A stretch of DNA of 64,000 nt from Spirochaetia bacterium (GTDB lineage: Bacteria; Spirochaetota; Spirochaetia; CADAEX01), in the NCBI GenBank assembly GCA_017446885.1, contig JAFSOR010000009.1, positions 102,159 to 166,158 on the forward strand, written 5' to 3'. Shown in pieces: positions 1,794 through 28,626 of the stretch. The number at the start of each line of letters is the position of its first letter. Positions within the stretch are counted from its first letter, which is position 1. The notes beneath the pieces are model-generated. The model was not told the DNA's origin and made no database searches. It saw only the letters and a program-made list of their open reading frames with translations. Made by a program: the position numbers and the translations under genes.

Positions 1794-1808
1794 TTCATTT
1801 CTCCTTTT

Positions 1809-2522: not shown

Positions 2523-3209
2523 ATGAAGAAAAATGAATTATTTTTAAAAGAGTGCAATCTTTTTTCAAATATCGACAGCACACATCTGCAAGCTATGCTG
2601 GTCTGTCTCGGGGCACGGGAAAAAACTTTCAGAAAAGGAAGTGTGATTTTTGCCTGTGGAGAAAAGGCAGAGACATTAGGTATTGTTCTTTCGGGGAAAG
2701 TTCAGATGATCCGTATAGATTACTATGGGAACCGGAGCATAGTAGCCGAGATGGGGAACGCACAGATTTTCGGCGAGGTCTTCGCATGCTCCGATATTGA
2801 CACATTGCCAGTAGATTTTTTGGCATCAGAGGAATCTTCCGTTCTGTTAATAAATGCCAGGCGGATAACCAAGACCTGTTCTCATGCTTGTGCTTTTCAT
2901 AGGCAGATTATTTTCAACCTTCTTAAGTTAGTTGCGACAAAGAGCCTGCTTTTTGGTCAGAAGATTGATATTGTCTCCCGGCGTACCACCAGAGAAAAGC
3001 TCCTTGCATATCTGGGGACTGTGGCAAGACAGACAGGAAAAAAATCATTCACAATCCCTTACAGCAGGCAGGAACTGGCAGATTATCTGGATGTGGAACG
3101 AAGCGGATTATCGGCCGAGATAGGAAAGATGTGTCGTGATAATATAATAAAATGCCACAGGAGCGAGTTTACTCTTTTACATAATCCACCAGACAACGGT
3201 GGCGCTTAA
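2523..3209 (+). CDS. Crp/Fnr-family transcriptional regulator (probable HcpR)
   Basis: 228 aa; cNMP-binding-like N-terminal domain and C-terminal HTH (RQELADYLDVERSGLSAEIGKM); divergent from hcp. Confidence 0.75.
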   Translation: MKKNELFLKECNLFSNIDSTHLQAMLVCLGAREKTFRKGSVIFACGEKAETLGIVLSGKVQMIRIDYYGNRSIVAEMGNAQIFGEVFACSDIDTLPVDFLASEESSVLLINARRITKTCSHACAFHRQIIFNLLKLVATKSLLFGQKIDIVSRRTTREKLLAYLGTVARQTGKKSFTIPYSRQELADYLDVERSGLSAEIGKMCRDNIIKCHRSEFTLLHNPPDNGGA

Positions 3210-12863: not shown

Positions 12864-15800
12864 TTATTCTGTCCAGAATTCTGTTATAAACTGCCTGAGC
12901 TCCGAATCCTGGGGTATATCAAAATCGCTTTTTACCTTTATCTGGTGGTTCACCAGTATCACAGTCTCATTCCCGGCATCGTTTATATGTAAAAATACCG
13001 AGCAGCCACCCTCGTGGTCAAGCATATATTCCCTAAGTTTCTCAAGCTGCTGCTCTGTAAAGGGCTCGTCAAGCCTTATATGAACCTGGTTTGCACCGTG
13101 GTGCTTCTTGTCAAGAGTTTCTATCTCTTCCACAGAATCGCACCTGAGCTGTGGAGAATCGGGATTCCTCAGGTCTATCTGCCCTATGAAAGCCAGAGCC
13201 TTGTCCTCGGCTATTATAGGCTGGAATTCCTTCCAGGCATTCTTGAAAAGGACTATGCTGAGGTCGCCGTCAAAGGTCTCTATAGTTACCACACCCATGT
13301 TTGAATTGCTCTTTGTAATAATGCTGCGTACATTCTTTACAAGACCTATTATGATATATTTTCTTCCTGGTGTGGCATGCTTGAGGTCATTCATGGGCAG
13401 GCTTACATGTTTCTGGTAAGCTTTTTTATACTTATCAAGTGGATGCCCCGACACATAGAAGCCAAGCCGCTCCTTCTCAAAAGCCAGCTTCTCTTTTATA
13501 TCCCAGTCGGGAACTTCCTCCATGGCCAGAGGCTGCATAGCCACATCGTCATCGCCGAACAGGGATATCATTCCCATCTTCTCTTTCTCCTGCTCGGCCG
13601 AGTAGTAGTCTATAAGGCGTTCTGCATTGTAGGCAAGCTTGGCCCTGTTTTTCTCAAGCTCATCAAAAACACCTGCCTTGATAAGAGAGTCTATGACCCG
13701 CTTGTTCAGAACCCTTAGGTCTATCCGCTTAAGGAAATCGTCAAAGCTCTTGAAACTGCCACCTTCCTTCCTTGCCCTGACTATCTCGTCCACCACAGCG
13801 TCGCCGGTATCCTTTATTCCCTGTATGCCATAGACAATCTTCCCCTGGTCGACTGTAAAGAACTTCTCCGACACATTGATGGTAGGTGGCAGCACCTTGA
13901 GCTTCATGGCCTTGGTCTCTGCCAGATACTTTTTGAAGTTATCGGGGTTTCCTATCTCGTTGGTCAGGTTGGCTGCCATGAACTCGGCAGGGTAGTGACA
14001 CTTAAGGTATGCTGTCCTGTATGCCACCACAGAATAGGCGGCCGCATGGCTTTTGTTGAAGCCGTACCGGGAGAATGGTTTCAGATGTTCAAATATTTCA
14101 TTTGCAATCTGTTCAGAATATCCCCTCCGCTTTGCTCCTTCTACGAATTCCTTCTGCTGGGCCAGAAGCTTGTCCTCCTTCTTCTTGGACATGTTGCGCC
14201 GCAGGATGTCGGCGTTGCCCAGAGAAAAGTCGCCTATTACCTGGGCGACCTTCATCACCTGCTCCTGGTAGACGATTACACCGTATGTGTTCTTGAGCAC
14301 CGGCTCCAGGTCCGGGTGAGGATAATGTATAGGCTCTTTGCCATTCTTGCAGTTGCAGAACTGGGGGATATAATCCATAGGACCTGGCCGGAACAGGGCG
14401 TTCAAGGCTATCAGGTCTTCTATACAGGTCGGCTTTGCATCCCGCAGGACTTTCTGCATGCCAGGACTTTCAAACTGGAACACAGCTGAACTCTTTCCTG
14501 CACTCAGCATCTGGTAGGTTTTTTTATCGTCCATAGGGATGTTGCTGGAATCAAAGTCGACTCCACGCTTGCGTATAAGCTCCTCGGTATGCTTGATCAC
14601 ATCAAGGGTCTTGAGCCCCAGGAAGTCCATCTTGACCAGGCCGCAGTTCTCTATCTTGTCCATGGTGTACTGGGTGGCTACGCTGTTTGCCTTGTCATCC
14701 TTGGTCCCCTTGAACAGCGGCACATACTCGGAAAGCTCTTTCTCGCCTATGACTATGCCGGCAGCATGGAGAGATGCATGGCGGGCCATGTTCTCAAGGT
14801 ATTTGGATTCCTTGAATAGGCGCTCATAGACGCCCCCTTTCTCCTTTATGGCGATAAGCTCCGGGATTCCCACCAGTTCAGGCACTTTGCAGAGCTCTGG
14901 ATCCTGCTTGAACTTTTCCACTTCCCCCAGCATTGTGGCAAGAGAGGCCTTTTTATGTGGCATGTCAGGGATAAGCTTCGCAATATCATTTGCCTCGGCA
15001 AAGGGAATCTCAAGCACCCGGGCCACATCCTTGATGACAGCCTTGGCCTTGAGGGTACCGAATGTTATTATCTGGCCGACTTTCTCGGCACCATATTTTC
15101 TGGTGACATAGTCAATAACCTGCTGCCGCCCCTCGTTGGCAAAGTCGACATCAAAGTCGGGCAGGGAGACACGTTCGGAGTTCAGGAACCGCTCGAACAA
15201 AAGGTCATACTTAAGAGGGTCTATGTCGGTTATCTTGAGGCAGTATGCCACAATTGAGCCGGCACCCGAACCACGCCCGGGTCCCACCGGAATGCCGTGG
15301 TCCTTAGACCAGTTGATGAAGTCTGCCACAATAAGGAAATAGCCCGGAAATTCCATTCCTATGATTGTATTCAGCTCGTATTCCACCCGCTGCTTTATCT
15401 CATCGGTAATAACTGGATACCGCTTCTTAAGCCCCTCATATGTCAGGTGCCGCAGGTAGTCGCCCTGGGTGGGGAACTCAGGCGGAATCTCGAAGATAGG
15501 GAACTTCGGCCCCGGGAACTCTATCTCCAGGTTGCACATCTCCTCGATAAGCTTTGTGTTCTTTATGGCCTCGGGCACGTTCGGGAACAGCGCCGCCATC
15601 TCGTCCGGGCTCTTCATATAGAACTGGTCGTTGTAGAATGTCAGGCGGCCGGGTGAGTTTATAGTCTTCTGGGTGCCTATGCAGATTAAGAGCTCCTGGG
15701 CTGTGGAGTGCTCCCTGTTCAGGTAGTGGATATCGTTGGTGGCAATAAGTGGAATGCCTGTCTTTTTTGAAATCTCTATGAGCCCGTGGTTCGATATCTT

Positions 15801-16352
15801 TTCCTCGGGGATTCCGTGGTCCTGCAGCTCAAGGAAGTAGTTGCCCCTGCCGAATATGTCATTGAACCTCATGGCCATGGCTGCTGCCTCATCCAGCTTG
15901 CCGTTTATTATAAGCTTGGGGACAACCCCGGCTATGCAGGCGCTTGAGCACACAAGCCCCTCGTGATACTGCTCCAGCACCTCGAAGTCGATCCTTGGTT
16001 TGTAGTAATAACCGTCGATATATGCGGTGGAGTTAAGCTTCATCAGGTTCCGGTAGCCGGTGTTGTCCTTCGCCAGCAGGATAAGGTGGTAGTACTTGTT
16101 TCCGAACTCGGTGCCTGTCTTTATCTTGCGTGAGTCCTCTGCCATGTAGAACTCGCACCCTACGATGGGCTTTATTTCGTTCTTACGGCACTTCTCGTAG
16201 AAGTTCAGGGCTCCGAACATGTTGCCGTGGTCTGTTATGGCTATGGAAGACATGCCCAGGCTCTTGGCCTTGGCCACCATGTCGTCTATCTTCATTGCTC
16301 CGTCTAAGAGCGAGTAGTCTGTATGGTTATGTAAATGGACAAATTCAGTCAT
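12864..16352 (-). CDS. dnaE: DNA polymerase III alpha subunit
   Basis: 1162 aa; N-terminal PHP domain HLHNHTDYSLLDG; polymerase core motifs. Confidence 0.95.
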   Translation of the reverse strand: MTEFVHLHNHTDYSLLDGAMKIDDMVAKAKSLGMSSIAITDHGNMFGALNFYEKCRKNEIKPIVGCEFYMAEDSRKIKTGTEFGNKYYHLILLAKDNTGYRNLMKLNSTAYIDGYYYKPRIDFEVLEQYHEGLVCSSACIAGVVPKLIINGKLDEAAAMAMRFNDIFGRGNYFLELQDHGIPEEKISNHGLIEISKKTGIPLIATNDIHYLNREHSTAQELLICIGTQKTINSPGRLTFYNDQFYMKSPDEMAALFPNVPEAIKNTKLIEEMCNLEIEFPGPKFPIFEIPPEFPTQGDYLRHLTYEGLKKRYPVITDEIKQRVEYELNTIIGMEFPGYFLIVADFINWSKDHGIPVGPGRGSGAGSIVAYCLKITDIDPLKYDLLFERFLNSERVSLPDFDVDFANEGRQQVIDYVTRKYGAEKVGQIITFGTLKAKAVIKDVARVLEIPFAEANDIAKLIPDMPHKKASLATMLGEVEKFKQDPELCKVPELVGIPELIAIKEKGGVYERLFKESKYLENMARHASLHAAGIVIGEKELSEYVPLFKGTKDDKANSVATQYTMDKIENCGLVKMDFLGLKTLDVIKHTEELIRKRGVDFDSSNIPMDDKKTYQMLSAGKSSAVFQFESPGMQKVLRDAKPTCIEDLIALNALFRPGPMDYIPQFCNCKNGKEPIHYPHPDLEPVLKNTYGVIVYQEQVMKVAQVIGDFSLGNADILRRNMSKKKEDKLLAQQKEFVEGAKRRGYSEQIANEIFEHLKPFSRYGFNKSHAAAYSVVAYRTAYLKCHYPAEFMAANLTNEIGNPDNFKKYLAETKAMKLKVLPPTINVSEKFFTVDQGKIVYGIQGIKDTGDAVVDEIVRARKEGGSFKSFDDFLKRIDLRVLNKRVIDSLIKAGVFDELEKNRAKLAYNAERLIDYYSAEQEKEKMGMISLFGDDDVAMQPLAMEEVPDWDIKEKLAFEKERLGFYVSGHPLDKYKKAYQKHVSLPMNDLKHATPGRKYIIIGLVKNVRSIITKSNSNMGVVTIETFDGDLSIVLFKNAWKEFQPIIAEDKALAFIGQIDLRNPDSPQLRCDSVEEIETLDKKHHGANQVHIRLDEPFTEQQLEKLREYMLDHEGGCSVFLHINDAGNETVILVNHQIKVKSDFDIPQDSELRQFITEFWTE

Positions 16353-16408: not shown

Positions 16409-17608
16409 ATGGATAGATTTGAATTCAGCCGATTCTATCAGTTAATCCCTGCCCAGAAGTATTATGCCTGGGGTTCAGAGACCAAGATACAGGCTCTTAC
16501 CGGGCTTAAGACCAATGGAAAACCGCTTGCCGAGATATGGATGGGAAGCCATCCCAATGGTATGTCCTTTCTCGATATAGAAGGCAAGAGTATTCCAGTA
16601 TCCGACTTTATAGCAGAAAATCCCGAAAAAGCCCTTGGTAAAGAGTGCATGGAAAAGTTCGGCTTTCTGCCGTTTTTGTTCAAGGTGCTGGCTGCCGAAA
16701 AGCCTCTTTCTATCCAGGCACACCCCGATTCCGAGACAGCACAGTTCGGCTATGAGAGGGAAGAACGCAACCAGATTCCCATGGATCATTTTACACGAGT
16801 CTATAAAGACCCGAACCATAAAAGGGAAATGATTTATGCAATTTCTACATTCTATGCTTTAAAAGGTTTTAGAAATATAGAAGAAATTAAAGCCAACTTT
16901 AAAAATTTCTTTCCTTTCAGCGGCAATGCATTTGTCGATTTCCGATATTCTGGCGAGGCTGATTTCTACAAAAAGTTCTTTACAAGGCTTCTTTCCATGG
17001 ATCAGACCCTGCGCAAAGCCATGCTCCGCGAGCTTGAGACCACTGCGTCGGGCATGGGCCAGGTTGAGCAGTTTATTTTCCGTAAACTTCTGTATGATTT
17101 CCCCGAGGACAGGTGTGTGTTTTCTCCACTCTTCCTCAACTGCATAAGGCTTGAGCCCGGCGAATGCATGTCGATAGACGAGGGGCAGCTCCATTCCTAT
17201 GTGGATGGCCTCTGTTTCGAGGTCATGTCTTCATCTGACAATACAATACGGGGCGGGCTTACCGAAAAGTTCATAGATGTTCTTGAGCTTTTCAATATAA
17301 TGAAGTTTGTCCATGGCTCCAAGGTGTGTGTCGAGCCTGTTGCAAAGGGGAAAGAAGAGCTTTATTGCCCGGGCTGGGATGAGTTCTGTTTCTCTGCTGT
17401 CGCCACCGGTGGAATGCCGTACTCAGGTCCAGGTGAGCACAGCCTTGAGATACTTTTTGTCTATTCCGGCACAGGAAAGATAGAAAACAACAGCTATAGC
17501 TTCGATTTAATGCAGGGAATGGCTATCCTTATTCCAGCTGCTGCAGGTTCTTATACAGTATCGGGCAGCCCGGATCTGGTGTTCTACAAGGCGGCAATGC
17601 CGTTATGA
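16409..17608 (+). CDS. manA: mannose-6-phosphate isomerase, class I
   Basis: 399 aa; EIWMGSHPNG and QAHPD motifs of type I PMI. Confidence 0.8.
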   Translation: MDRFEFSRFYQLIPAQKYYAWGSETKIQALTGLKTNGKPLAEIWMGSHPNGMSFLDIEGKSIPVSDFIAENPEKALGKECMEKFGFLPFLFKVLAAEKPLSIQAHPDSETAQFGYEREERNQIPMDHFTRVYKDPNHKREMIYAISTFYALKGFRNIEEIKANFKNFFPFSGNAFVDFRYSGEADFYKKFFTRLLSMDQTLRKAMLRELETTASGMGQVEQFIFRKLLYDFPEDRCVFSPLFLNCIRLEPGECMSIDEGQLHSYVDGLCFEVMSSSDNTIRGGLTEKFIDVLELFNIMKFVHGSKVCVEPVAKGKEELYCPGWDEFCFSAVATGGMPYSGPGEHSLEILFVYSGTGKIENNSYSFDLMQGMAILIPAAAGSYTVSGSPDLVFYKAAMPL

Positions 17609-18072
17609 GGATATTTGTGGACTCTGATTCCTGTCCTTCACAGGTACGGGAAATAATAGTAAAGGCAGCAGAACGTACTAAAAGCCTCTCTTTTTTTGTG
17701 GCAAACCATAAAATTCCGCATGGTACAAATGCCTATACCCATGATATAATAGTAGAAGAGGGAAAGGACAAGGCCGACAACTACATAGCAGAGCATGCCA
17801 CAGAGCATGATATTGCTGTTACCCGCGACATACTGCTTGCCGAGCGCCTGGTGCAGAAAAATGTGGCAGTTGTAAACGACCGTGGAAACCTTTATACTGC
17901 CGAGAATATCAGGGAGCGGGTCTCTATAAGGAACTACATGCTTGAGCTTGCGCAGAACGGCCTTAAGACCGAGGAGTCCGGCACTTTCGGCAAGAAGGAG
18001 CTGTACCTTTTTGCCAATGCCTTTGATTCCTTGATTACCCGTAAGCTGAAAGGAGAAAAAGATGAAAGTTAG
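17605..18072 (+). CDS. YaiI/YqgE-like DUF188 family protein
   Basis: 155 aa; N-terminal MRIFVDSDSCP motif characteristic of UPF0178. Confidence 0.65.
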   Translation: MRIFVDSDSCPSQVREIIVKAAERTKSLSFFVANHKIPHGTNAYTHDIIVEEGKDKADNYIAEHATEHDIAVTRDILLAERLVQKNVAVVNDRGNLYTAENIRERVSIRNYMLELAQNGLKTEESGTFGKKELYLFANAFDSLITRKLKGEKDES

Positions 18073-18991
18073 ACATATTATTTTAGTTTTGTTTGCAATA
18101 GCTCTTTTTTCCTCCTGTTCGGTCAAGAAGATGGCAGTAAACTCCATGGCCAAGAATATGTCTGGCGATGCCACGGCAGTGTTCATGGAGGATAACGATC
18201 CAGAACTGGTTGGCGATGCTTTCCCTGTAATACTCAAGATGATGGATATGCTGGCTGCAACATCGCCTGACAACAGCACTCTTAAATCGACAGCCGGCAG
18301 CCTGTATGTGATGTATGCCAACGTCTACCTGCAGGGCAAAGGCTCTATGCTTCCATACGAAGAATGGGAGACCCAGAAAGAGCTTTACGACAGAGCTAAA
18401 AAACATTACAGGCGTGGTTACGATTATATTATAAAGGCACTTGAGCTTAAGCATAAAGGGTTTTATGCCGCCTTTGCCGCATCTGACTACGATGCAGCTT
18501 TTGCAGGCTTTAAGAAAGAGGATGCAGCAGACCTTTACTGGGGCGGGGCCGCAATTCTGGCAGGTGTCTCTGTAGATATTCTGGATCCCGACTTTGCAGC
18601 CGACCGCGATGGCGCCATAAAGATGCTGTTCAAGGCTCTGGAGTTTGACCCAGACTTTGGCAATGGCATGCTTGATGAGATAATGATGCAGTATTATGCA
18701 TCGCTTCCCGAGGGGATGGGCGGAAGCATGGAGAAAGCACTTTACCATTATAAGCACGGCGTAGAGCTTTCCAAAGACAGCATGGTGTCGATTCATGTAT
18801 CATATGCCAGCACAATCTGCACCAAGAATCAGAGCCAGGAAGGCTACGACGAGTTCACAGCTGTGCTTGAGGATGTGCTTGGGCGCGATGTGGAAAGTGT
18901 GCCGGAGAACCGGCTTGCCAATATAATAAGTCAGCGGAAGGCTATGTGGCTTTTAGAGAACCGGGATGATTATTTTTTGTTTGGATTTTAA
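18062..18991 (+). CDS. TRAP-transporter-associated TPR-like lipoprotein (TatT-like)
   Basis: lipoprotein signal (LFSSCS); helical/TPR-like; immediately upstream of TRAP DctP and DctQM genes. Confidence 0.6.
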   Translation: MKVRHIILVLFAIALFSSCSVKKMAVNSMAKNMSGDATAVFMEDNDPELVGDAFPVILKMMDMLAATSPDNSTLKSTAGSLYVMYANVYLQGKGSMLPYEEWETQKELYDRAKKHYRRGYDYIIKALELKHKGFYAAFAASDYDAAFAGFKKEDAADLYWGGAAILAGVSVDILDPDFAADRDGAIKMLFKALEFDPDFGNGMLDEIMMQYYASLPEGMGGSMEKALYHYKHGVELSKDSMVSIHVSYASTICTKNQSQEGYDEFTAVLEDVLGRDVESVPENRLANIISQRKAMWLLENRDDYFLFGF

Positions 18992-19000
18992 GGTGACTGT

Positions 19001-19984
19001 ATGAAAAAGTTTTTTATCTTTGTTTTTATGTTCTGTACACTTATTTCTTCCTTTGCAGGAACAGTAATAAAGCTGGGCACCATAGCCCCTGCCGGCTCCC
19101 TGTGGGATATAAAGCTGCGCGAGATGGCCTCGGAATGGAACCGGATAACTGGAGGCGAGGTACAGCTTAAGCTTTATATGGGCGGCACAGTAGGGGACGA
19201 GGACAATATGATCCGTGCCATGAAGGTGGGCGGCCTTAATGCCTGCGCCATAACTGCCCAGGGTATGAAGGAGATTGCATCCGATACATTTGCCTTGTGC
19301 CTGCCATATATTGTCAAGGATGACGATGAGTTTGATTATGTCTTTGAAAATGTTAAGGGTGATTTTGAGCTTGCTTTTGAGAAACAGGGCTTTGTTACCC
19401 TGGGTTGGGCCATGACAGGCTGGGTTAACTTTTTCTCAAGGGATCCTGTAGTCAGCCCCGATGACCTAAGGAAGGAAAAAATCGCCATAGATACAGACAG
19501 CAGGCTAAGCAAAATATGGACCGAGCTTGGTTTCCGTGCTATACCGCTCTCTTTCAACGACCTGGTGGCATCGCTTTACAGCGGTATGGTGGATTCTATT
19601 TATGTCACACCCCTTGCTGCATCGGCCATGGGCATGAACAAGATAGCACCCAATATGTGCGACTACAGGATTGCACCTGTCTACTGTGCTGTGATTGTGG
19701 ATAAAAGAGCCTGGAACCGTGTTCCTGCCAAGTATAAGGAACCTCTTAAGCAGCGTACTGCCGAGATTGCGGGGGAGTTCTACGAAATAATAAAGGTGGA
19801 CGAGGCAAAGGCTATAGAGGTTATGAAGAAGAACGGCCTTCAGGTCCACGAGGTGTCTGACCAGGTTGCCCAGGAATGGCTTAAACTTAGCCGCGACGGC
19901 AGCGACGCCTTTTCCAGGGAGCTTATCTCCAAGGAAATATATGATAAGATAATTGCAATTGTAGATGAGTACAGAAAGAAATAA
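19001..19984 (+). CDS. dctP: TRAP transporter substrate-binding protein (DctP family)
   Basis: 327 aa with signal peptide; DctP-like fold motifs. Confidence 0.8.
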   Translation: MKKFFIFVFMFCTLISSFAGTVIKLGTIAPAGSLWDIKLREMASEWNRITGGEVQLKLYMGGTVGDEDNMIRAMKVGGLNACAITAQGMKEIASDTFALCLPYIVKDDDEFDYVFENVKGDFELAFEKQGFVTLGWAMTGWVNFFSRDPVVSPDDLRKEKIAIDTDSRLSKIWTELGFRAIPLSFNDLVASLYSGMVDSIYVTPLAASAMGMNKIAPNMCDYRIAPVYCAVIVDKRAWNRVPAKYKEPLKQRTAEIAGEFYEIIKVDEAKAIEVMKKNGLQVHEVSDQVAQEWLKLSRDGSDAFSRELISKEIYDKIIAIVDEYRKK

Positions 19985-21824
19985 ACCGCTGTTTGAGATT
20001 TATATATCTGCTTTTCTCATAGTGCTTCTGGCCGGTATTCCAACAGCCGAGATTCTTGTCCGCAAGCTGTTGGGGACAGGGCTTAAAGGGGGCTATGACT
20101 ACACGCGTCATATCGTCCTATGGCTCACACTGCTGGGAGCTTCGGTAAACTCTTTCACAGACCGTCATATGAAGATAGAATTCTGCACCAAGTTCCTTTC
20201 GGAAAAAGGTAAAAAGTTTGCAGATTCTTTATCGCTTTTCGTAGTAGTCCTGGTTTCTGGGGCATTCTTTATAGTTTCTGCTGTATTCTTAAAGATGGGC
20301 TTTACCGCTGATGATAAGGTTGGAATTATAAGCCAGCGCCTTGTCACTGTAATAATGCCTGCAGGCTTCCTCCTTATCATAATAAGGGAAATTCAGCGGA
20401 AAGCTTTCTCTAAAGGGCGTATTATAGCCTTGTTCTTGGGTGTTGCAGCAGCCCTGTGGGTGTCGGTTTCTCCGCTTGTAAACTGCATATCTGATATAGC
20501 ATCTGATGTGCCGGAATGGTGCTGGGTTCTTTCCGATTCCTCGGTTGCCTCTATAGGAGCCATCAAGATTCCACTTCTTTTTCTGCTTATAGCTTCTGGC
20601 GTGCTGGGCGCTCCTATCTTTGCTGTGCTGGGCGGGATAGCCTATATGCTTATATCTGCCTCTGGCACTTATGCCGAGATTTCGGCCAACGAATTTTACA
20701 CTATGCTCATAGGCAATACTGTGCCGGCCATTCCACTCTTTACCCTTACAGGCTTTATACTGTCAGAAAGCAAGGCAGGGGACAGGCTTATACGGACGTT
20801 CAATGCCTTCTTCGGCTGGCTGCCTGCAGGAATAATCATAGCCACAGTCATAATCTGTGCTTTTTTCACCGTATTCACCGGAGCATCGGGGGTAACTATA
20901 CTGGCAATAGGGGGGCTTCTTTCTGCCATCCTGGAAAAGAACGGCATAGAGGAACGCTACCGGAACGGGCTTTTATGCTCTGCAGGCAGCATAGGGCTTC
21001 TGTTTCCCCCAAGCCTCCCCATGATTCTTTACGGCATAATCGCCCAGCTTGATATCAAGGCCATGTTCCTTGGTGGCATTATTCCTGGGCTTCTTCTGGT
21101 GCTTTCGCTTATCATAACAGGCGTCATCTATATATCTAAGCATCCTGTTAAAAGGAGCAGGACCTCGGTCTCGGAGTGTGTCTCAAGCTTTAAAGGCTCT
21201 TTCTGGGAGATTATGCTGCCGTTCATAATCATATTCTCCTATTTCTCGGGACTTACAACATTGGTCGAGACCGGTGCTGTGGCAGTACTGTACACTATGC
21301 TGGTGGAGTTTGTCATAAAGCGCGAGCTCCATTTCAAGGATATGTTCACCATAGCCCGCAAGAGTGTTCCTATTATTGCAGGAATCCTTATTATACTGGG
21401 CATGGCCAAGGTTCTTTCGTACTATATGATAGACGAGATGATTCCACAGCGTTTTGCAGACTGGATTGCCCTCCATATCCATTCCAAGATACTGTTCCTG
21501 TTCCTTCTTAATATTGCGCTGCTTCTGGTAGGCTGTTTCATGGATATCTATTCTGCAATAATGGTGGTGGTGCCTCTTATTATCCCGCTTGGAGAGATTT
21601 TTGGCATAAATCCTATCCACCTGGGAATAATATTTCTGGCAAACCTTGAGCTGGGCTATATAACACCACCTGTAGGACTTAACCTGTTCCTGGCAAGCTA
21701 CCGGTTCAATGTGCCGCTTGACAAAATGTACAGGGCAGCCTTCCCGTTCTTCCTTATAATGCTTCTTACAGTCTTTATAATAACCTACGTGCCTGGCTTT
21801 ACAGTCTGCTTAGGAACTCGGTGA
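19965..21824 (+). CDS. TRAP transporter fused permease DctQ-DctM
   Basis: 619 aa; 4 TM small (DctQ) part followed by 12 TM DctM part. Confidence 0.8.
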   Translation: MSTERNKPLFEIYISAFLIVLLAGIPTAEILVRKLLGTGLKGGYDYTRHIVLWLTLLGASVNSFTDRHMKIEFCTKFLSEKGKKFADSLSLFVVVLVSGAFFIVSAVFLKMGFTADDKVGIISQRLVTVIMPAGFLLIIIREIQRKAFSKGRIIALFLGVAAALWVSVSPLVNCISDIASDVPEWCWVLSDSSVASIGAIKIPLLFLLIASGVLGAPIFAVLGGIAYMLISASGTYAEISANEFYTMLIGNTVPAIPLFTLTGFILSESKAGDRLIRTFNAFFGWLPAGIIIATVIICAFFTVFTGASGVTILAIGGLLSAILEKNGIEERYRNGLLCSAGSIGLLFPPSLPMILYGIIAQLDIKAMFLGGIIPGLLLVLSLIITGVIYISKHPVKRSRTSVSECVSSFKGSFWEIMLPFIIIFSYFSGLTTLVETGAVAVLYTMLVEFVIKRELHFKDMFTIARKSVPIIAGILIILGMAKVLSYYMIDEMIPQRFADWIALHIHSKILFLFLLNIALLLVGCFMDIYSAIMVVVPLIIPLGEIFGINPIHLGIIFLANLELGYITPPVGLNLFLASYRFNVPLDKMYRAAFPFFLIMLLTVFIITYVPGFTVCLGTR

Positions 21825-22653
21825 ACATATTGGTCAGCGCTTTCTGAACATAGGGTGAGAAAAACGTATATTTCTCGGTGAACAGCTGTACAAACTTCTC
21901 TGTCCAGCCCTCGATAATTTTTTCTGGAATAGGGAGTTTCTGCTCGGCAAGGCCGCTTTCTATCTCGGTCTCGCGGATAATTTCTTCGCCCCAGTTGCCG
22001 ATAGCGAATTTGCATATTGATATGCTGCTCTTGAATGTAGAGGCTGTTCCTACAAACGTTATTGAAGTCCCCTTGTCCTGAATCTCGTTGAAGTAGTCCA
22101 CATCATATTCCTCGTACGGAATCCTTATCTTTAAGATCATCTCTCCAGGCTTTATATCAAGGTAACCATCCCTGTATAACTGCTGGACCGGTATAAGGAA
22201 CTTCAGGTTGGCGGTGGTGAATGAGACAACCTCTGCCTTGGCATTGAGTATGGAAAGTGCCGCAAAAACGCTGTTTCTGATTTTTGGGGCGCAGATAAGC
22301 CCTCCTATGGTCAATATGTTACGAACATTCGGAGGACCGCATTCGGTCAGGGCCCGGATCAGGATAGGGGGAAGCACTGTGGCACCTTTCTTAAGCAGCT
22401 CGTTTACCCTCAGCTCGGGACCTATCTCAAAGAACTTCTCACTCCGTTTAAGGGCCGAAAGCTCTTGGATATAACCTGGATAGATAGCTTTTGTAGGCGT
22501 GGTGGCATTTTCTCTTTTGTCCAGAATATCTACGCTGTTAAGGTCATCAAAGCATAGCCTGTAGGACTTGCATGTGTTCATAGTCTTTAATAGGCCGTTA
22601 ACATTGTCTGGGGTATAGTATATGAGCTTTGTGGTTCTGTCACTTCCGTTCAT
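21799..22653 (-). CDS. molybdenum-hydroxylase family FAD-binding subunit (CoxM/XdhB-like), divergent
   Basis: 284 aa; FAD-binding PCMH-type fold pattern; last gene of an overlapping three-gene operon. Confidence 0.6.
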   Translation of the reverse strand: MNGSDRTTKLIYYTPDNVNGLLKTMNTCKSYRLCFDDLNSVDILDKRENATTPTKAIYPGYIQELSALKRSEKFFEIGPELRVNELLKKGATVLPPILIRALTECGPPNVRNILTIGGLICAPKIRNSVFAALSILNAKAEVVSFTTANLKFLIPVQQLYRDGYLDIKPGEMILKIRIPYEEYDVDYFNEIQDKGTSITFVGTASTFKSSISICKFAIGNWGEEIIRETEIESGLAEQKLPIPEKIIEGWTEKFVQLFTEKYTFFSPYVQKALTNMFTEFLSRL

Positions 22654-23125
22654 TGCGTTTACCTCGCTTTATGGCGTTAAGGGCCAGCCTGACACCGATA
22701 CACATGGACTGGAAATCGGTACAGTTGCAGATATTTCCAGAAAGAGCTTCGTATACATCTTTTTCTGTAAGCTGTGCCGAGCTTAATACCAGCGAATATA
22801 TGGAGACCATTTTGCCATGCTTGCAGAAATCGCAGAAGTTGCAGCCCATGGCTTTCAGAACCTTGGTAATAGTCTCAAATTCCTTTGTTGTGGAAATGTA
22901 TTCGTAGGTGAGTATGTTGGAGTTACGTACCGAGAACATGCGCACCATGCATGCAGGCACCGGAATGTTGTCTTTAAGCACGGTGCAGCCTCCGCAGCGG
23001 CCTGTGTTGCAGCTGCTGTTCACCGACAGCAGGCCGAAATCGTTCCGGAGCACATCCGAAAGCCTGTCAGAAGGATCTGCATCCAGGTTCTTTTTCATAT
23101 TGTTCAGCATGAATTTTATTATCAT
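22640..23125 (-). CDS. [2Fe-2S]-binding small subunit of a molybdenum hydroxylase (CoxS-like), divergent
   Basis: 161 aa; ferredoxin-type CxxGxCGxC (CNTGRCGGC) and second cluster CNFCDFC...CNCTDF. Confidence 0.6.
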   Translation of the reverse strand: MIIKFMLNNMKKNLDADPSDRLSDVLRNDFGLLSVNSSCNTGRCGGCTVLKDNIPVPACMVRMFSVRNSNILTYEYISTTKEFETITKVLKAMGCNFCDFCKHGKMVSIYSLVLSSAQLTEKDVYEALSGNICNCTDFQSMCIGVRLALNAIKRGKRNERK

Positions 23126-25113
23126 TGTTCCTCCACCATACGGTAAAGTTTCTCGGGAGTAACAGGCATATCGGTTATAACTTTACCTACAGCCTGGCTT
23201 ATGGCGTTGCAGTAGGCTGCAGGAATAATTCCAAATGGTATGTCGCCGCAGTAGTTGACAGTATCGGCACCCTTGCTGTTTATAAGGCTTATGCTTATAG
23301 GCAGGTTTGCATATTTCCAGGATGACAATTCATCCTCGCCCTGGCTGTTGCACCAGTAAAGGCTGTTTATGATACGCTGCATCAGGTAGCGTTTTGAGAT
23401 ATCCTCGTCAATGGTGTCGCCCACATCAAAGCAGGTCCAGATTCCCTTTATCGACGGCTTGTAGGTGATTATATCAACCGAAACCTCGACTATGGCAGCA
23501 CCCCATACAGCAGCATTGATGTCGTCGGTAGGGTCGTAGCTTTCTTCTACTTTTATAGGGAGCGGAGTGCTTATTCTAAGTTCCTGCAGCTTACGGCAGC
23601 ATTTCTGGACCAGCTGTATAGGTCCCTTGGTCATCTCGCCCAATATATCGGGAATAGAATCCTCGTTCGATGCTGTGTCGTGTGGCATAATGTGAATGCT
23701 GGCCTCTTCAAGCTCTGTTGCCTTATGGATAACCTTTTTCCAAAGAGTGTACTCAAAGAAGTTCTGAGGCACAGTTGCTGTGGAGTAGTGGATCTGCCAG
23801 TTGTCGTTCAGTGTAAGAGTGCCTGTGAAAGGGGTGGCAATCTTTTTGGAAAAGCCGCTTGTAGCCTTGTATGTTGCAAAGGCAAGACCTATGCCGCGGT
23901 AGTAGCGGTCTGAGCTTATGCCCTTTATACGGTTCTGCTTTGCCAGGTCATATGCCGAGAACTTCCGCTGAAAGTCAGAGTTCCGGGTAACTTTTTCTAT
24001 AACTATGTTTCCTGCCTTGGCCGAAGTTTCAACCGTATTCTCAAGACGCCATTCGTCGGGGAACTGCTCGGTCTGGGAGATGATATTGTTGATATGGGTC
24101 TCTATGCCCACCAGCATCTGGGTGAATTTGTTTCCTGTAATAAAGAACATAGGTGGATAGCTGGTCTTGATAAGCTGCTCGCGTATAATGACCTTGTTCA
24201 CCTTATAGGGACCCATTATGCTTATAAGGGCATTCTCCATTACTTCGTCGGCAAACAGAGGATAAGCCCCTGCGTTTATAGACAGGTCCACGGTGCACTG
24301 GAGAATAGCACCAGTATTCTTGTCCACCATAGATGTATGCTTTATCTTGAACGGATATTGGGCTCCGATATACTGCTGTACCTCTTCTTTGGTCAGTATA
24401 AGGTTGACCGATTCCCCAGGCCGCAGGGCCATGACCGAGGCGGCCAGAGCTGCCAGATAGGATGGGAACCAGAGTCGCCCCTCAAGCGGGGATGCAATCT
24501 GCGGCACATTCACCTTTACATCTTCTTCCGGCATATTGAGTATACTGCTTACTGTGGAGCGGACATGATGCGGCCACTGGGTGGATGTGCATACCGATAC
24601 AGACCCTGCACCTGAGTAGATAGCAACTCCTATGGGGTCGTTGTATACCGGCTTATACAGGTCGCCCGATGTGGTGGTCGCCACTGTAAGCACCTGTTCA
24701 GGGTCTATCGGTTTGTCATCGTAGGTCCAGGTCTCGTTCCGTTCCTTTATCACCTGGTTCTCTTTAAGGTCGTTGTCAAAGAAAAACGGAGTGCTGGGCT
24801 GGTATTCGACCTGTATCAGCTTAGATACAGCCTCTGCATCGCTTCTGCTCTTGGCTGCAATTATAAAAATAGGCTCGCCCTGGTAGTTGACATATCTGTC
24901 GCACAGAAGAGGAATCTTGCTTCCAAGTATATCAAATTCTTTCTGGGGCAGGTCCTGGTACGATATTACGCTGCATCCTGCAGGCAATTCCTCCGGTATC
25001 TTTACATTCTTTATTTCGCCGCAGAATATGGGGGAGCGGTACAGCAGAAGGAAGAGAGAGTTCCTAAGGTTTAAATCTCTATCTTTAAGGTCATCCCACA
25101 TTGTCCACTCCAT
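23122..25113 (-). CDS. xanthine-dehydrogenase-family molybdopterin-binding large subunit (divergent, 663 aa)
   Basis: a/b-hammerhead-like N-terminus; size and operon context with 2Fe-2S and FAD subunits. Confidence 0.55.
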   Translation of the reverse strand: MEWTMWDDLKDRDLNLRNSLFLLLYRSPIFCGEIKNVKIPEELPAGCSVISYQDLPQKEFDILGSKIPLLCDRYVNYQGEPIFIIAAKSRSDAEAVSKLIQVEYQPSTPFFFDNDLKENQVIKERNETWTYDDKPIDPEQVLTVATTTSGDLYKPVYNDPIGVAIYSGAGSVSVCTSTQWPHHVRSTVSSILNMPEEDVKVNVPQIASPLEGRLWFPSYLAALAASVMALRPGESVNLILTKEEVQQYIGAQYPFKIKHTSMVDKNTGAILQCTVDLSINAGAYPLFADEVMENALISIMGPYKVNKVIIREQLIKTSYPPMFFITGNKFTQMLVGIETHINNIISQTEQFPDEWRLENTVETSAKAGNIVIEKVTRNSDFQRKFSAYDLAKQNRIKGISSDRYYRGIGLAFATYKATSGFSKKIATPFTGTLTLNDNWQIHYSTATVPQNFFEYTLWKKVIHKATELEEASIHIMPHDTASNEDSIPDILGEMTKGPIQLVQKCCRKLQELRISTPLPIKVEESYDPTDDINAAVWGAAIVEVSVDIITYKPSIKGIWTCFDVGDTIDEDISKRYLMQRIINSLYWCNSQGEDELSSWKYANLPISISLINSKGADTVNYCGDIPFGIIPAAYCNAISQAVGKVITDMPVTPEKLYRMVEEQ

Positions 25114-25624
25114 TTGCCTCTTCTAAAAGCTCAAATCCAAAATCTATAAGATATGCGTTGTTATAAAGCGAAAGCCGTACTTTTGCCCGCCTTTTCCGCC
25201 TGTCCACCTTGACTATCTGTCCTTCAAGCCCTTTCATAGGACCTTCTACAACCACTATCCTGTCCTGTTCATTGTATACGACCTTGGACTGTCCTATGAC
25301 ACGGCCATACTTGGCCAGTTCATATATTTTCTTTGCCTCGTCCAGCGGAAGGGGAGAAATTTTCTCATCTGCCTTAAGGAAACGGTTGAAGAAATGGATA
25401 CGCCTGAACTCCTGATAGGTGGCAGCATCGACATCATCGGCCTCCAGAAACAGGTAGCCAGGGAAAATCGACTTAAGCCCTTTGTGGGTATGGCCGTTTT
25501 TCCGTATCATAAGTTCTTTCCGCAGCCAGAATAACTTTAGGGGCAGGTGTCCTTTCTTGCTCTCCCAAAGTTTTATATATGTATCTTCTTTTCCAGTATT
25601 AACCTGAATAACGTATAAATTCAT
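25091..25624 (-). CDS. NusG paralog (NGN + KOW), UpxY/LoaP-like specialised antiterminator
   Basis: 177 aa; NGN domain then KOW motif GQIVKVDRRKRRAKVRL; overlaps the start of the downstream Mo-hydroxylase gene. Confidence 0.7.
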   Translation of the reverse strand: MNLYVIQVNTGKEDTYIKLWESKKGHLPLKLFWLRKELMIRKNGHTHKGLKSIFPGYLFLEADDVDAATYQEFRRIHFFNRFLKADEKISPLPLDEAKKIYELAKYGRVIGQSKVVYNEQDRIVVVEGPMKGLEGQIVKVDRRKRRAKVRLSLYNNAYLIDFGFELLEEANGVDNVG

Positions 25625-25727
25625 TATTTATATATTAATCTTTATATGGCTGATTTTCAATAGAAAAAATTTTTAAGAATTTTTCAGAAATTTGAAGCAA
25701 AATTGATTTTTTTCTTGTAGATACAGT

Positions 25728-27005
25728 ATGAAAAGTACAAGTATCTTAATTTTTTTGCTTTTTATTCCCCTCTTGTGCCAGGCCGATCTGGACATGGAGA
25801 TAAAGTCGGAATGTTCCTCTGAAAAGCTGATTAAAAGGCGCTTGGATATTAAAGGGGAGTCTATGGAGGTATGTGCAGTCTCTGAAAAAGGGGAGGATGA
25901 TGAATTCTGCACAGGCTCTGTTGTTACTCCTTGGTTCGGTTTCGGACACCTTAGGACCCGTGGACTTTTGACCGAATCTTTAAACCCGTGCGGTTATTCC
26001 CCGACATCCGAGGTGTTTTTCGAGCCAGCCCGCCTGGTTCTTGACCGGAGTATAGAGGAAAGTGGCACCTATGGCCTTTTTGTCAAACCTATAGATTGGC
26101 TTACATGTTTTTCATTGGGGAATAAAGATGAGCAGTATATCCGCGGTTTTCTCTCAAGTTTTGCAATCAATGATTTCTCGATCTATCTGCTTCTTGAGAA
26201 CAGCGATATACAGGGCTATTCCAGCCAATCAAGCTGGTATTTGTCAAGGCCCGAGGCCGAAAGCGGGGCAGAACTGTGGAATATGCTGTTAAACTGCATT
26301 TACGAGAAAGATTGGTTACTTATATCGCTGTCGGCAGGTTCCTGCTTGGGAAAGTATGCGGATAGGGGCTTTTTCTCAAGGGATTATGTAACATTTTTCT
26401 ACAAGAGCCTGTTCGAGCTTAACTTTATGTTTGCAGGGACCACAGACTATTATCTGGCTCCCGGAGGCTCAATCCCGGCATCCCAGTATAAGTATGGGCT
26501 TGATGTCTGGTTCAGGCCATCTCGTATGCTTAAGCTTTCTGGGGTATGGTACACCGACTATAAGAGACCCGACTATAAAGACTTATACTACAACGACTTT
26601 GCCCGGCATCTTTCCCTTAAATCAACCCTATATGCCGGCGATTTTACCATTGCAGCCTCCTATGATTCCGACACCGAGTTCTATAACACTTCAGAGACTA
26701 CCGAAAAAAGGGAGTTTCAGGGCAGTATAGTCTACGATGCCGATTTTATAAGGCTTTCGATTGCAGACCATTGGTATATGAAGGATGACCGCTATTACCG
26801 CAATGCTTTTAGTGCAGGCTGCAAGCTCTATTTCGAGTATGTGCGGTTAAGCTTTTCCTGGAAGCGTGATATCCAGGAAGATATCACAGATTCTTTTTCC
26901 GAGGAGCTTGCTTTAAGGCTTAACTATTTTTCCCTTACACTCAGCCATAAGAAAAACGGAGACAAACCTTCGGTATTTACTGTGACAGGGATAATCAACT
27001 ATTGA
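25728..27005 (+). CDS. Tyr-rich exported protein, possible outer-membrane beta-barrel
   Basis: signal peptide; alternating aromatic/polar pattern; C-terminal ...GIINY. Confidence 0.4.
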   Translation: MKSTSILIFLLFIPLLCQADLDMEIKSECSSEKLIKRRLDIKGESMEVCAVSEKGEDDEFCTGSVVTPWFGFGHLRTRGLLTESLNPCGYSPTSEVFFEPARLVLDRSIEESGTYGLFVKPIDWLTCFSLGNKDEQYIRGFLSSFAINDFSIYLLLENSDIQGYSSQSSWYLSRPEAESGAELWNMLLNCIYEKDWLLISLSAGSCLGKYADRGFFSRDYVTFFYKSLFELNFMFAGTTDYYLAPGGSIPASQYKYGLDVWFRPSRMLKLSGVWYTDYKRPDYKDLYYNDFARHLSLKSTLYAGDFTIAASYDSDTEFYNTSETTEKREFQGSIVYDADFIRLSIADHWYMKDDRYYRNAFSAGCKLYFEYVRLSFSWKRDIQEDITDSFSEELALRLNYFSLTLSHKKNGDKPSVFTVTGIINY

Positions 27006-27015
27006 ATTTTTAGCC

Positions 27016-28626
27016 TTGGAGTTTTATTATGAAAATATGAACACATTCAAAGGCAGAAGTTTTACCGTAATAGATGATTTCTCGTTTGACGAGAAAATGT
27101 ATCTGTTTGAGAGGGCAAGAGAGCTTAAAAGCTATATAAAATCGAATGACAAGGCAGGGATGGACAAGTTCCGTATAAACGACCCCGACTTCGGTGTCTA
27201 CGAGGTCTTTATCGAGGACAGCACCCGTACCAAGGAGTCTTTCAAGAATGCGGCAGAGTTCCATAGAGTCAAGCTGTCAAACCTTGATACTTCCCATTCT
27301 TCTATAAATAAGCAGGAGAGCTTTGCCGACACATTCAACACACTCTCTGGCTACTACAACAAGATTTTTATAGTGCGGAGCCGTCAGGAAGGACTTTGCC
27401 GATATCTGGCAGAAAATGCCAAAGGTTATGCACTGCGTAACGGGCTTGATATCACACCTGCATTTATAAACGCCGGCGACGGCAAACACGAGCATCCAAC
27501 CCAGGAGCTTCTGGACGATTTTACATTCCTTGAGCATAACGGCTGGAATACCGAAAGCATCCATATTGCATTGGCCGGCGACCTGTACCATGGCCGCACA
27601 GTCCATTCCAAGGCCGATGGCTTAAAGATATTCAAAAAAGTTACAGTTGACCTTATAGCACCGCCCGAGCTTGCCATGCCGGAATTCTATGTAAATAAAA
27701 TGATTGCAAATGGTTTTAAGGTCAATTTTTATTCTTCCATCGAGGAATATATAAATTCGGGCAAAATGGCCAAGATATGGTATTTTACCAGGCCTCAGCT
27801 TGAGCGGATGGGCGATGCTATACTTAAGAAACAGGATCAGCTGCGGGAAAGCATAACATTCCAGCGCCAGTACATGGAAAGGCTTCCAGAAGGAACTATA
27901 TTCTATCATCCTCTTCCACGGCATAAAGTTTATCCGTCAATCCCTACATTCCTAGATTCCACACCGCTCAACGGCTGGGAAGTCCAGTCTGCCAACGGCA
28001 TGATTATCAGAATTATCCTCCTGGCCCTCATAGCAGGTAAGATAGGCGAAGACTTCAAGGGAACGGTCAAAGTGCCACAGAGCTTCGAAGATTCCGAGGA
28101 TTTCATAGTGCCGGTGCCAACCCATGGCAATGCACCTATCAAGGATTGCTCCGAAGGGGTAAAGCCTATTTCCGACGGCCTGGTCATTGACCACATTCTG
28201 CGTGGCCATACCGAGACTGAGATAAGGGAGCAGCTTATAAGGATAATCAGAACCCTTAAGCTCTATGGAAAGGGGGGCGAATGGGTAACAGCTTCCCATA
28301 AGAATCCAGGTCAGATGAAAGGTATCATCTTCCGCCCGGGACACGGAGAGTTCGGAATAAAGAGCATGAAACGCCTGGCCGCCCTGGCACCTGGCTGCAC
28401 TGTCAACATAATAAAGGATAAGCATGTGATAAAGAAAATGCGCCTTTATATGCCTCCGGCCATCTACAACTTCGACGATATAGAGTGTTCCAACCCCGAC
28501 TGCATCTCGAACCACGAGCAGGGCGAGGGTATTCCTGCCGAATTCTACAGGACTTCCGAAGATAAGTTCATCTGCAAGTACTGCGAGAAAATTCATACAT
28601 TCATGGATATCTGGAAATGGAACTGA
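27016..28626 (+). CDS. pyrB: aspartate carbamoyltransferase, fused catalytic (PyrB) and regulatory (PyrI) domains
   Basis: N-terminal carbamoyltransferase fold, then a PyrI-like domain with a C-terminal Zn motif CSNPDC...CKYC; start may instead be the ATG at 27037. Confidence 0.8.
   Translation: MEFYYENMNTFKGRSFTVIDDFSFDEKMYLFERARELKSYIKSNDKAGMDKFRINDPDFGVYEVFIEDSTRTKESFKNAAEFHRVKLSNLDTSHSSINKQESFADTFNTLSGYYNKIFIVRSRQEGLCRYLAENAKGYALRNGLDITPAFINAGDGKHEHPTQELLDDFTFLEHNGWNTESIHIALAGDLYHGRTVHSKADGLKIFKKVTVDLIAPPELAMPEFYVNKMIANGFKVNFYSSIEEYINSGKMAKIWYFTRPQLERMGDAILKKQDQLRESITFQRQYMERLPEGTIFYHPLPRHKVYPSIPTFLDSTPLNGWEVQSANGMIIRIILLALIAGKIGEDFKGTVKVPQSFEDSEDFIVPVPTHGNAPIKDCSEGVKPISDGLVIDHILRGHTETEIREQLIRIIRTLKLYGKGGEWVTASHKNPGQMKGIIFRPGHGEFGIKSMKRLAALAPGCTVNIIKDKHVIKKMRLYMPPAIYNFDDIECSNPDCISNHEQGEGIPAEFYRTSEDKFICKYCEKIHTFMDIWKWN

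Follow-up and report, generated by a model that had tools for sequence, protein, structure and literature searches.

The NusG paralog LoaP has been reported from Bacillota, Actinomycetota, and Spirochaetota, encoded beside biosynthetic operons, and in Bacillus it both binds and requires a leader hairpin with a UNCG tetraloop (PMC12691694). The subject of this analysis is a loaP operon from a rumen spirochete, carried on a stretch of 64,000 nucleotides (contig JAFSOR010000009.1, positions 102,159 to 166,158, of assembly GCA_017446885.1) that is referred to here as the window and numbered from its own first letter. Downstream of loaP lie three genes, designated L, S, and M, for the large, iron-sulfur, and flavin adenine dinucleotide (FAD) subunits of a predicted protein with the xanthine dehydrogenase (XDH) fold. 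The same pairing recurs across the Spirochaetota, most often together with two nucleotide-sugar genes, and L lacks most of the sequence signatures by which XDH enzymes hold the molybdenum cofactor (Moco). To our knowledge, the LoaPs of spirochetes are uncharacterized.

What are the closest described systems? The LoaP of Bacillus velezensis, known from the dfn and mln polyketide operons, belongs to the same family as the window protein by the NCBIfam model NF033641, with NGN and KOW domains and a similar basic patch in the KOW domain. In the window, by contrast, loaP opens a short and probably leaderless operon, in which neither a UNCG hairpin nor a NusA-type intrinsic terminator was found, and the cargo is an XDH-fold enzyme (plus two sugar enzymes in relatives) rather than a polyketide synthase (PKS) or a long polysaccharide cluster. 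UpxY, from the capsular polysaccharide operons of Bacteroides, is likewise a NusG paralog that leads the operon it is thought to serve, and the ancestral form of the spirochete operon seems to have been sugar-linked too. However, the window protein scores only 33.5 bits on the UpxY model (cutoff, 100), its operon has no UpxZ partner, long 5' untranslated region, or invertible promoter, and at 3.8 to 6.6 kb the operons described here are far shorter than those of UpxY.

On the enzyme side, the three-subunit molybdenum hydroxylases (PucCDE/XdhABC, the nicotinate dehydrogenase of Eubacterium barkeri [3hrd], quinoline 2-oxidoreductase [1t3q], and PaoABC) share with the window the set of large, small, and medium subunits, the fold (TM about 0.8), and the clusters of the small subunit. 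The window L differs in being about 100 residues shorter, in lacking the GGxFGxK loop, the RGFG arginine, and the GQG loop, and in carrying Asp for the catalytic Glu, while M lacks the AGGT loop and no XdhC, PucA, or PucB gene lies nearby. A second parallel is offered by the E1/E3 systems (DdhC/DdhD and AscC/AscD), in which a 4,6-dehydratase and a DegT-family enzyme dependent on pyridoxal or pyridoxamine phosphate (PLP/PMP) work with a [2Fe-2S] flavoprotein electron donor. The gene logic resembles that of the spirochete module, but E3 is a single FNR-like protein and not an XDH-fold heterotrimer, making this a functional analogy only. The nearest functional precedent is the manlipyrrolamide cluster, in which Man6, Man7, and Man11, homologous to PucC/D/E and accompanied by PucA/PucB-type Moco maturation genes, form an XDH-like three-subunit complex, an aldehyde oxidase, that is encoded beside nucleotide-sugar-modifying enzymes and acts on a sugar-derived intermediate (PMC12983305). 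That cluster belongs to the secondary metabolism of a Gram-positive bacterium, with no reported link to LoaP, whereas the spirochete module is part of the core genome.

THE loaP OPERON AND ITS FIRST GENE

The operon comprises the following genes.

loaP, 25091..25624, minus strand: 177 aa; first gene of the operon; NusG NGN and KOW domains
L, 23122..25113, minus strand: 663 aa, or 659 aa from the ATG at 25101; XDH-fold large subunit without the canonical Moco-binding signatures
S, 22640..23125, minus strand: 161 aa; subunit with two [2Fe-2S] clusters
M, 21799..22653, minus strand: 284 aa; FAD_binding_5 subunit

A sequence-only reading of this DNA had described four minus-strand genes overlapping by 4 to 23 bp, and the open reading frames (ORFs) bear this out, with overlaps of 23 (loaP/L), 4 (L/S), and 14 (S/M) bp. 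Close homologs of L are 659 aa long and begin at the second Met, the ATG at 25101, which has GGAG in front of it; the loaP/L overlap may therefore be 11 bp. On the minus strand between 25624 and 21799, no terminator-like site was found (this covers the intrinsic type only, Rho-dependent sites not being predictable). Because the genes overlap and no internal terminator separates them, loaP, L, S, and M constitute a single operon, with a promoter abutting the loaP start codon, and the overlaps would allow translational coupling. The earlier description of a tightly coupled four-gene operon headed by a specialized NusG paralog is thus upheld. Where does the operon end? The only minus-strand terminator-like site in the interval 21000-27000 is the following.

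21730..21747, minus strand: weak terminator-like hairpin, 52 nt beyond the M stop codon, inside the convergent DctQM gene

This hairpin may be the operon end, though such sites occur in the same interval at chance level (7, against 6.0 +/- 2.6 expected). By exact-match look-up, the locus is also present in rumen and other gut metagenomes and in the metagenome-assembled genome (MAG) GCA_017417265.1.

The loaP product matches the Pfam NusG NGN domain with 30.9 bits (residues 4-100) and KOW with 25 bits (residues 121-149), as expected of a specialized NusG paralog, and it can be named more precisely. It scores 142.8 bits on the NCBIfam LoaP model NF033641 (cutoff, 125), and falls below the cutoffs of the models for NusG (57.6 bits against 135.7) and RfaH (19.4 against 144.5) as well as that for UpxY, mentioned above. 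All 29 of the 29 aligned spirochete relatives match NF033641 as well. The closest solved structure is 8f5g_A (E 3e-17), which itself reaches 175 bits on the model; housekeeping NusG structures follow at E 3e-08 or weaker. The basic patch of the KOW domain is conserved, reading RRKRRAKV in the window and KRKKRAKV in 8f5g. By the curated sequence model, then, the first protein of the operon is a LoaP.

AN XDH FOLD WITHOUT THE Moco SIGNATURES

The three downstream genes had been taken to encode an XDH-family enzyme, and Pfam agrees for all three subunits. L matches Ald_Xan_dh_C (42.5 bits), MoCoBD_1 (87.7 bits), and MoCoBD_2 (29.0 bits, just over the cutoff of 27), so the molybdopterin-binding domains, whose absence had been named as the point on which that assignment could fail, are all detected. 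The same reading called the enzyme divergent and its large subunit short for the family. Both descriptions fit: L has 659-663 aa, compared to 743-798 aa in the canonical references, and every NCBIfam equivalog model stays below 12% of its cutoff (PucD, for example, gives 91 bits against 784). The fold itself is well supported. Human and bovine XDH align with the whole length of a profile built from 24 L family members (E 1e-70), and an AlphaFold2 (AF2) model of the window L (pLDDT 87.5, pTM 0.88) superposes on xanthine oxidase and on the aldehyde oxidoreductase of Desulfovibrio gigas (1sij, 3etr_C, and 1fo4) with TM 0.76-0.82 at 15-18% identity.

Nearly every member of the XDH superfamily is taken to have the GGxFGxK loop and the catalytic Glu. 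How does the spirochete family compare? Residue by residue, the sites are as follows.

GGxFGxK Moco loop (bovine 795-801): window IASPLEGR; spirochete family 0/60; canonical 10/10 references and 75/77 others
Arg of RGFG (bovine R912): window ITGNK; a minority of the family have Arg; references 10/10 Arg
(E)xGQG loop (bovine 1038-1040): absent from the window (TVPQNFFEY); in the family, L035 and L066, with a related form in L049; references GQG 6/10, a related loop in the rest
Catalytic Glu (bovine E1261): window Asp (CGDIPF); family E, D, Q, A, M, T, or G; references Glu 10/10
Gln contacting Mo=O (bovine Q767, STQ): window kept (STQWPHH); family mostly Q, some H, R, T, S, A, or L; references Q 10/10

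The two canonical exceptions among the 77 are near-variants of GGxFGxK. In all 60 L family members, on the other hand, the loop is replaced by bulky or charged residues, with L-D/E in place of F-G. Aligned with human XDH, the L profile reads g-s-h-L-E-G-K opposite GGGFGGK and s-g-l-g opposite RGFG, and MGQG faces a nonhomologous stretch. The sequence-only reading had proposed that the Moco ligands be inspected, with a mixed outcome: the STQ glutamine is kept, while GGxFGxK, the RGFG Arg, and the GQG loop are gone and Glu has become Asp. Three related loci (numbered L0xx in this analysis) look less extreme. L035, L049, and L066 all lack GGxFGxK but carry a loop of the form DMGQG or GGMG, and two of them also have the RGFG Arg; on these motifs they may be intermediates between canonical and motif-less L. 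Proteins that score between the L family and the canonical enzymes, such as P0164, were also considered as relatives and set aside, having a canonical GGGFGGK and an unrelated gene context.

Are the other requirements of a molybdenum enzyme provided for? No XdhC/MocA-type Moco maturation gene was found at the window locus, nor any of the PucA/PucB type in the module described below. Taken at the level of sequence, L-S-M belongs to the XDH superfamily by fold and fails the Moco-motif tests, and it is not classed here as a molybdenum hydroxylase. The real anomaly of the locus, as far as sequence can tell, is this loss of cofactor-binding signatures in L, and in M of the window clade, which the earlier reading had missed.

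The iron-sulfur subunit is far more conventional. S matches Fer2_2 (43.8 bits) and Fer2 (21.4 bits), with Fer2_3 below cutoff. Its second-cluster motif had been singled out as atypical; the sequence GNICNCTDF is indeed present, at residues 130-138, but a functional anomaly is not supported, since its departures from the usual motif affect only non-ligand residues, which vary across the family, and all eight cysteines are at least 96% conserved. C39, C44, C47, and C59 are kept in 53/53 family members and C98, C101, C133, and C135 in 51-52/53. M matches FAD_binding_5 with 61.1 bits. In the window clade, the AGGT loop that contacts the FAD diphosphate is replaced by CFDDLN or YFDDIN; the window has CFDDLN, opposite AGGHSL in an alignment with 4zoh_B, and retains the other FAD motif, TIGG, as TIGGL. 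In most other lineages of the family, both FAD loops of M are present.

Could the operon simply be decaying? In comparisons with three related species, dN/dS is 0.08 for loaP, 0.06-0.08 for L, 0.08-0.12 for S, and 0.05-0.11 for M, at dS of about 0.8-2.2. Purifying selection is strong on all four genes, and pseudogene decay of the operon was rejected on these values (0.05-0.12).

A SIX-GENE MODULE ACROSS THE SPIROCHAETOTA

A scan of one genome per GTDB species returned 428 loci encoding a relative, and the best 80 of these, all from Spirochaetota, were examined for synteny. Gene order was read by tblastn of the window proteins, together with two further proteins of the related loci (DH and AT), and counted on the 58 loci with at least 6.4 kb of sequence downstream of loaP. 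DH is a Polysacc_synt_2 protein of about 490 aa, a UDP-sugar 4,6-dehydratase whose best matches, PseB and FnlA, are both below cutoff. AT is a DegT-family aminotransferase, scoring best as PseC/ArnB-like and not as RfbH-like. The orders found after loaP are as follows.

DH-AT-L-S-M: 44/58 loci
DH-L-S-M: 2/58 loci
L-S-M, the window type (rumen, horse, and other gut lineages): 5/58 loci
DH-AT only: 4/58 loci
Unrelated genes: 3/58 loci

L-S-M therefore lies downstream of loaP in 51/58 testable loci. The sequence-only reading had seen the oddity of the locus in a dedicated antiterminator for a small redox operon; with the pairing phylum-wide, that is no peculiarity of the window. Judged by gene order, the window operon is a shortened version of a module of six genes, loaP-DH-AT-L-S-M. 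By the same comparison, the rumen and gut Treponema-like clade of the window has lost DH and AT from the locus, and other lineages have lost L-S-M; no DH or AT homolog was found anywhere in the 64-kb window. The genes of the module are packed or overlapping throughout, and in almost all loci loaP overlaps the following gene or directly adjoins it.

In what genomic surroundings does the module occur? It lies outside any larger glycan cluster: no glycosyltransferase, flippase, or PKS was seen beside loaP in the related loci examined, and in the window loaP adjoins no polysaccharide or secondary-metabolite operon. Instead, dnaE follows directly after the module in L047, L087, and L088. In the window, dnaE (12864-16352, minus strand) also lies downstream of the operon, beyond a TRAP/TatT transporter, a DUF188 gene, and a phosphomannose isomerase gene. 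The module thus occurs across the Spirochaetota in a core-genome context, with dnaE next in several lineages, and this points to vertical inheritance. Because its common form includes two nucleotide-sugar enzymes, the association with glycan biosynthesis that is usual for NusG paralogs would hold for the ancestral module. Our searches found no published description of the module or of the motif-less L family, though key LoaP literature lay outside them and an earlier mention of the neighborhood is possible. Treponema pallidum presumably has a cluster of CapD, SpsC, and "quinoline 2-oxidoreductase" genes, which was not used as evidence.

Several variants of the locus deserve mention. In L055 (10001-18027) and L060 (9962-16862), two of the four DH-AT-only loci, loaP-DH-AT is followed by an ORF of 1138-1233 aa, dnaE by size only, and L-S-M is absent. 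These two loci are the mirror image of the window clade, in that each half of the module can persist alone with LoaP. In L042 (9986-16050), loaP-DH-AT is followed by phosphoglucomutase/phosphomannomutase and type I phosphomannose isomerase genes; the window, too, has its phosphomannose isomerase gene near the module, at 16409-17608. A different, undescribed LoaP context appears in L074, L080, and L082, where a gene positive for the LoaP model precedes one for a STAS-domain protein. In L080, the STAS gene is followed by mraW, a Mur ligase gene, and mraY (the dcw cluster), and a UDP-glucose dehydrogenase gene lies upstream; in L082, the genes after STAS include one for a SpoIIE-phosphatase/anti-sigma-kinase-like protein, and L074 is alike by ORF pattern only. 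Finally, L008 and L011, both from MAG RGIG9769, represent two loaP-L copies, 85% and 81% identical to the window LoaP, from either a mixed bin or a real duplication.

PROMOTER, SPACER, AND THE QUESTION OF A LEADER

Two features upstream of loaP bear on how the operon is transcribed.

25632..25660, minus strand: sigma-70-type promoter-like site, TTGAAA-17-TAATAT, from a promoter scan
25625..25727, no strand: divergent intergenic spacer, 103 bp, A/T-rich, shared with the plus-strand gene at 25728

The -10 hexamer ends 7 nt ahead of the loaP ATG. Promoter element and spacing are both kept in the window, L007, L009-L011, and L015, while the 7 nt themselves vary, and this conserved spacing implies an mRNA with little or no leader; judged from the promoter position, the operon mRNA is probably leaderless, or nearly so, in the window clade. 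Some gene callers take a TTG within the promoter element as the start of loaP. It is not a start codon in the window, because an in-frame TAA comes after it.

The sequence-only reading had suggested a mechanism dependent on leader RNA and a search of 25625..25727 for an ops-like or structured element of the 5' untranslated region. The spacer turned out to be unstructured: its minimum free energy (MFE) is -5 kcal/mol (z = +1.10), a value equaled or bettered by 174 of 200 shuffled sequences. Folding of the first 150 nt of the mRNA is equally unremarkable (z = -0.8). The spacer has no Rfam match at the gathering threshold or at E <= 1, and RNAalifold detected no covarying structure across seven clade members. 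What of the hairpin required by Bacillus LoaP? From -200 to +600 of loaP in 81 sequences (the 80 related loci and the window), UNCG-tetraloop hairpins number 16 on the sense and 17 on the antisense strand, with no consistent position. With the promoter 7 nt from the ATG and no structural, Rfam, UNCG, or covariation signal, the proposed leader mechanism finds no footing in this spacer, and a structured or ops-like leader was rejected on folding, Rfam, RNAalifold, and the UNCG counts on both strands.

On inspection, the upstream regions of the 80 loci have sigma-70-like promoters at variable distances. In 16/68 loci, the promoter lies 5-9 nt ahead of the start, where the transcript would be leaderless, and the remaining candidate leaders extend up to about 150 nt; no element common to the upstream regions was found across clades among the 80 loci. 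Internal terminators were also considered as targets of LoaP and rejected, as counts are at chance in the window and terminator-like sites in L016 and L047 are not above shuffles. In a Sediminispirochaeta-like clade (L032, L039, L041, L044, L045, L047, L050, and L062), a possible hairpin of 4-5 bp, seen by eye only, lies just past the predicted -10 (within the first ~20 nt, about 100 nt upstream of loaP) and has the form UUCA-loop-UGAA, or UUCCA-loop-UGGAA in L062.

WHAT DOES THE OPERON DO?

The explanation we lean toward, with modest confidence, is that the window operon encodes a noncanonical iron-sulfur redox module that derives from an amino-sugar pathway and is cotranscribed with its own LoaP. 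Rather than a classical molybdenum hydroxylase, L-S-M would be a redox module built on iron-sulfur clusters, its pterin site either changed or missing. As oxidoreductase or electron-transfer partner, it would have assisted the 4-keto/4-amino-sugar chemistry encoded next to it, in a role loosely like that of the Fe-S flavoprotein E3, which serves the DegT-family dehydrase E1 in 3,6-dideoxyhexose synthesis. LoaP, translated from the first cistron, would load onto RNA polymerase and sustain elongation through its own operon, and possibly through other loci, and its recruitment would proceed without the UNCG leader hairpin of Bacillus LoaP.

Several points weigh against this explanation. (i) The segment DTDxVPDSGPSxLSR, which resembles the canonical pterin-binding segment, is kept in L, as is the STQ glutamine in the window. 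(ii) Many Moco contacts in XDH enzymes are made by the main chain, so motif loss is no proof of cofactor loss. (iii) Given the GQG-like loop of L035, L049, and L066, some family members may still bind Moco. (iv) The conserved 2Fe-2S clusters of S need a redox partner site, which could be a pterin. (v) At 3.8 kb the operon is short, and no intrinsic terminator that LoaP would have to overcome is predicted in it. (vi) Action of LoaP in cis would follow from the first-cistron arrangement only by analogy with UpxY, and the E1/E3 comparison is our own.

Does L-S-M then bind a pterin after all? We would entertain only tentatively the idea that it does so in a remodeled pocket, oxidizing an aldehyde or keto intermediate from a 4-amino-6-deoxy sugar, as Man6/7/11 do in pyrrolamide biosynthesis. 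That an XDH-like complex can act downstream of nucleotide-sugar enzymes has been seen before (PMC12983305), and, beyond the retained STQ and PDSGPSxLSR residues and the intermediate motifs of L035, L049, and L066, most members keep an acidic catalytic residue and the strictly conserved 2Fe-2S chain implies electron flow to or from L. Yet it is the superfamily's most conserved Moco loop that is replaced in 60/60 members, with L-D/E for F-G; several of them have Q, A, M, T, or G where the catalytic residue would be; and, unlike the man cluster, the module contains no PucA/PucB-type maturation genes.

A separate doubt concerns LoaP, and it is compatible with the redox role favored above for L-S-M. 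LoaP might act mainly in trans, on glycan or cell-envelope operons elsewhere, and head this operon for the sake of coexpression or by history, which strikes us as rather unlikely. An operon without recruitment element or terminator would suit such a role, as would the persistence of LoaP alone whichever half of the module is lost (the window clade on one side, L055 and L060 on the other) and the ortholog that heads the STAS and dcw-cluster context in L074, L080, and L082. Against it stand the overlap or abutment of loaP with the next gene in nearly every locus, which is the arrangement of the cis-acting UpxY, and the failure to see any candidate target in the window, where the scan found housekeeping genes only (48-64 kb not scanned).

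That the operon encodes a bona fide divergent molybdenum hydroxylase (a xanthine, aldehyde, or heterocycle dehydrogenase), licensed by the NusG paralog through a structured or ops-like element in the 5' untranslated region, now appears quite improbable. All three Pfam subunit families are above their cutoffs and the modeled fold is that of XDH, and Bacillus LoaP does require a leader hairpin (PMC12691694). The loss of GGxFGxK, the RGFG Arg, and the GQG loop, the change of Glu to Asp, the missing AGGT loop of M, and the lack of an XdhC/MocA-type maturation gene at the locus all argue against the enzyme, and against the leader stand the 7 nt between promoter and ATG, the unstructured spacer, the UNCG count of 16 versus 17, and the lack of covariation or an Rfam match. 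Very little credence can be given to a decaying remnant left after loss of the sugar genes, a view invited by the loss of these genes and of the cofactor-binding motifs of L and M in the window clade, since the frames are intact, dN/dS is 0.05-0.12 in the three species comparisons (dS about 0.8-2.2), the Cys ligands are conserved, and the fold is predicted with confidence.

If an iron-sulfur redox module headed by its own LoaP is accepted, what would it mean? A whole clade without GGxFGxK that has yet kept the fold, the Fe-S chain, and purifying selection suggests reuse of the scaffold or a new mode of cofactor binding. The window LoaP fits the sequence definition of the family without the RNA and terminator partners that define the Bacillus mechanism, and a loaP operon that is short, poor in terminators, and (in the window clade) apparently leaderless, with no Bacillus-type hairpin, suggests that LoaP is recruited differently or has its targets elsewhere. 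A six-gene module that is widely retained in the core genome points to an unrecognized, conserved amino-sugar product in spirochetes. The boldest version joins all of these: a spirochete-wide family of XDH-fold Fe-S proteins, without molybdenum cofactor, would be the redox partner of a core amino-sugar pathway, with LoaP recruited hairpin-free from a leaderless transcript. We regard this combination as speculative and probably too strong; if true, hairpin-free recruitment from a leaderless transcript would be a new mode for this class of elongation factor.

NEIGHBORING GENES IN THE WINDOW

Convergent with the operon is a transporter gene.

19965-21824, plus strand: fused DctQM TRAP permease, convergent with M

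The 3' ends of M and DctQM overlap by 26 bp (21799-21824), whereas no overlap is seen in L007, L009, or L010. The permease belongs to a "TPAT"-type TRAP cluster of TatT (TPR), DctP, and fused DctQM (18062-21824) that converges on the operon and is also found in L012, L014, L016, and L023. As dnaE directly follows the module in other lineages, the transporter looks like an insertion into an old synteny.

On the other side of the spacer, the divergent plus-strand gene at 25728-27005 encodes a protein of 425 aa that has a hydrophobic segment at its N terminus and matches nothing in Pfam; synteny is kept in the window clade and, at 34-37% identity, in L015 and L021. It is followed at 27016-28626 (plus strand) by a gene for a 536-aa fused aspartate carbamoyltransferase with catalytic (OTCace) and regulatory (PyrI) domains. 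Far from the operon and unrelated to it, positions 228-2444 (minus strand) encode a hybrid-cluster (prismane) protein and a 4Fe-4S dicluster protein, adjoining the gene of a Crp-family regulator (2523-3209).

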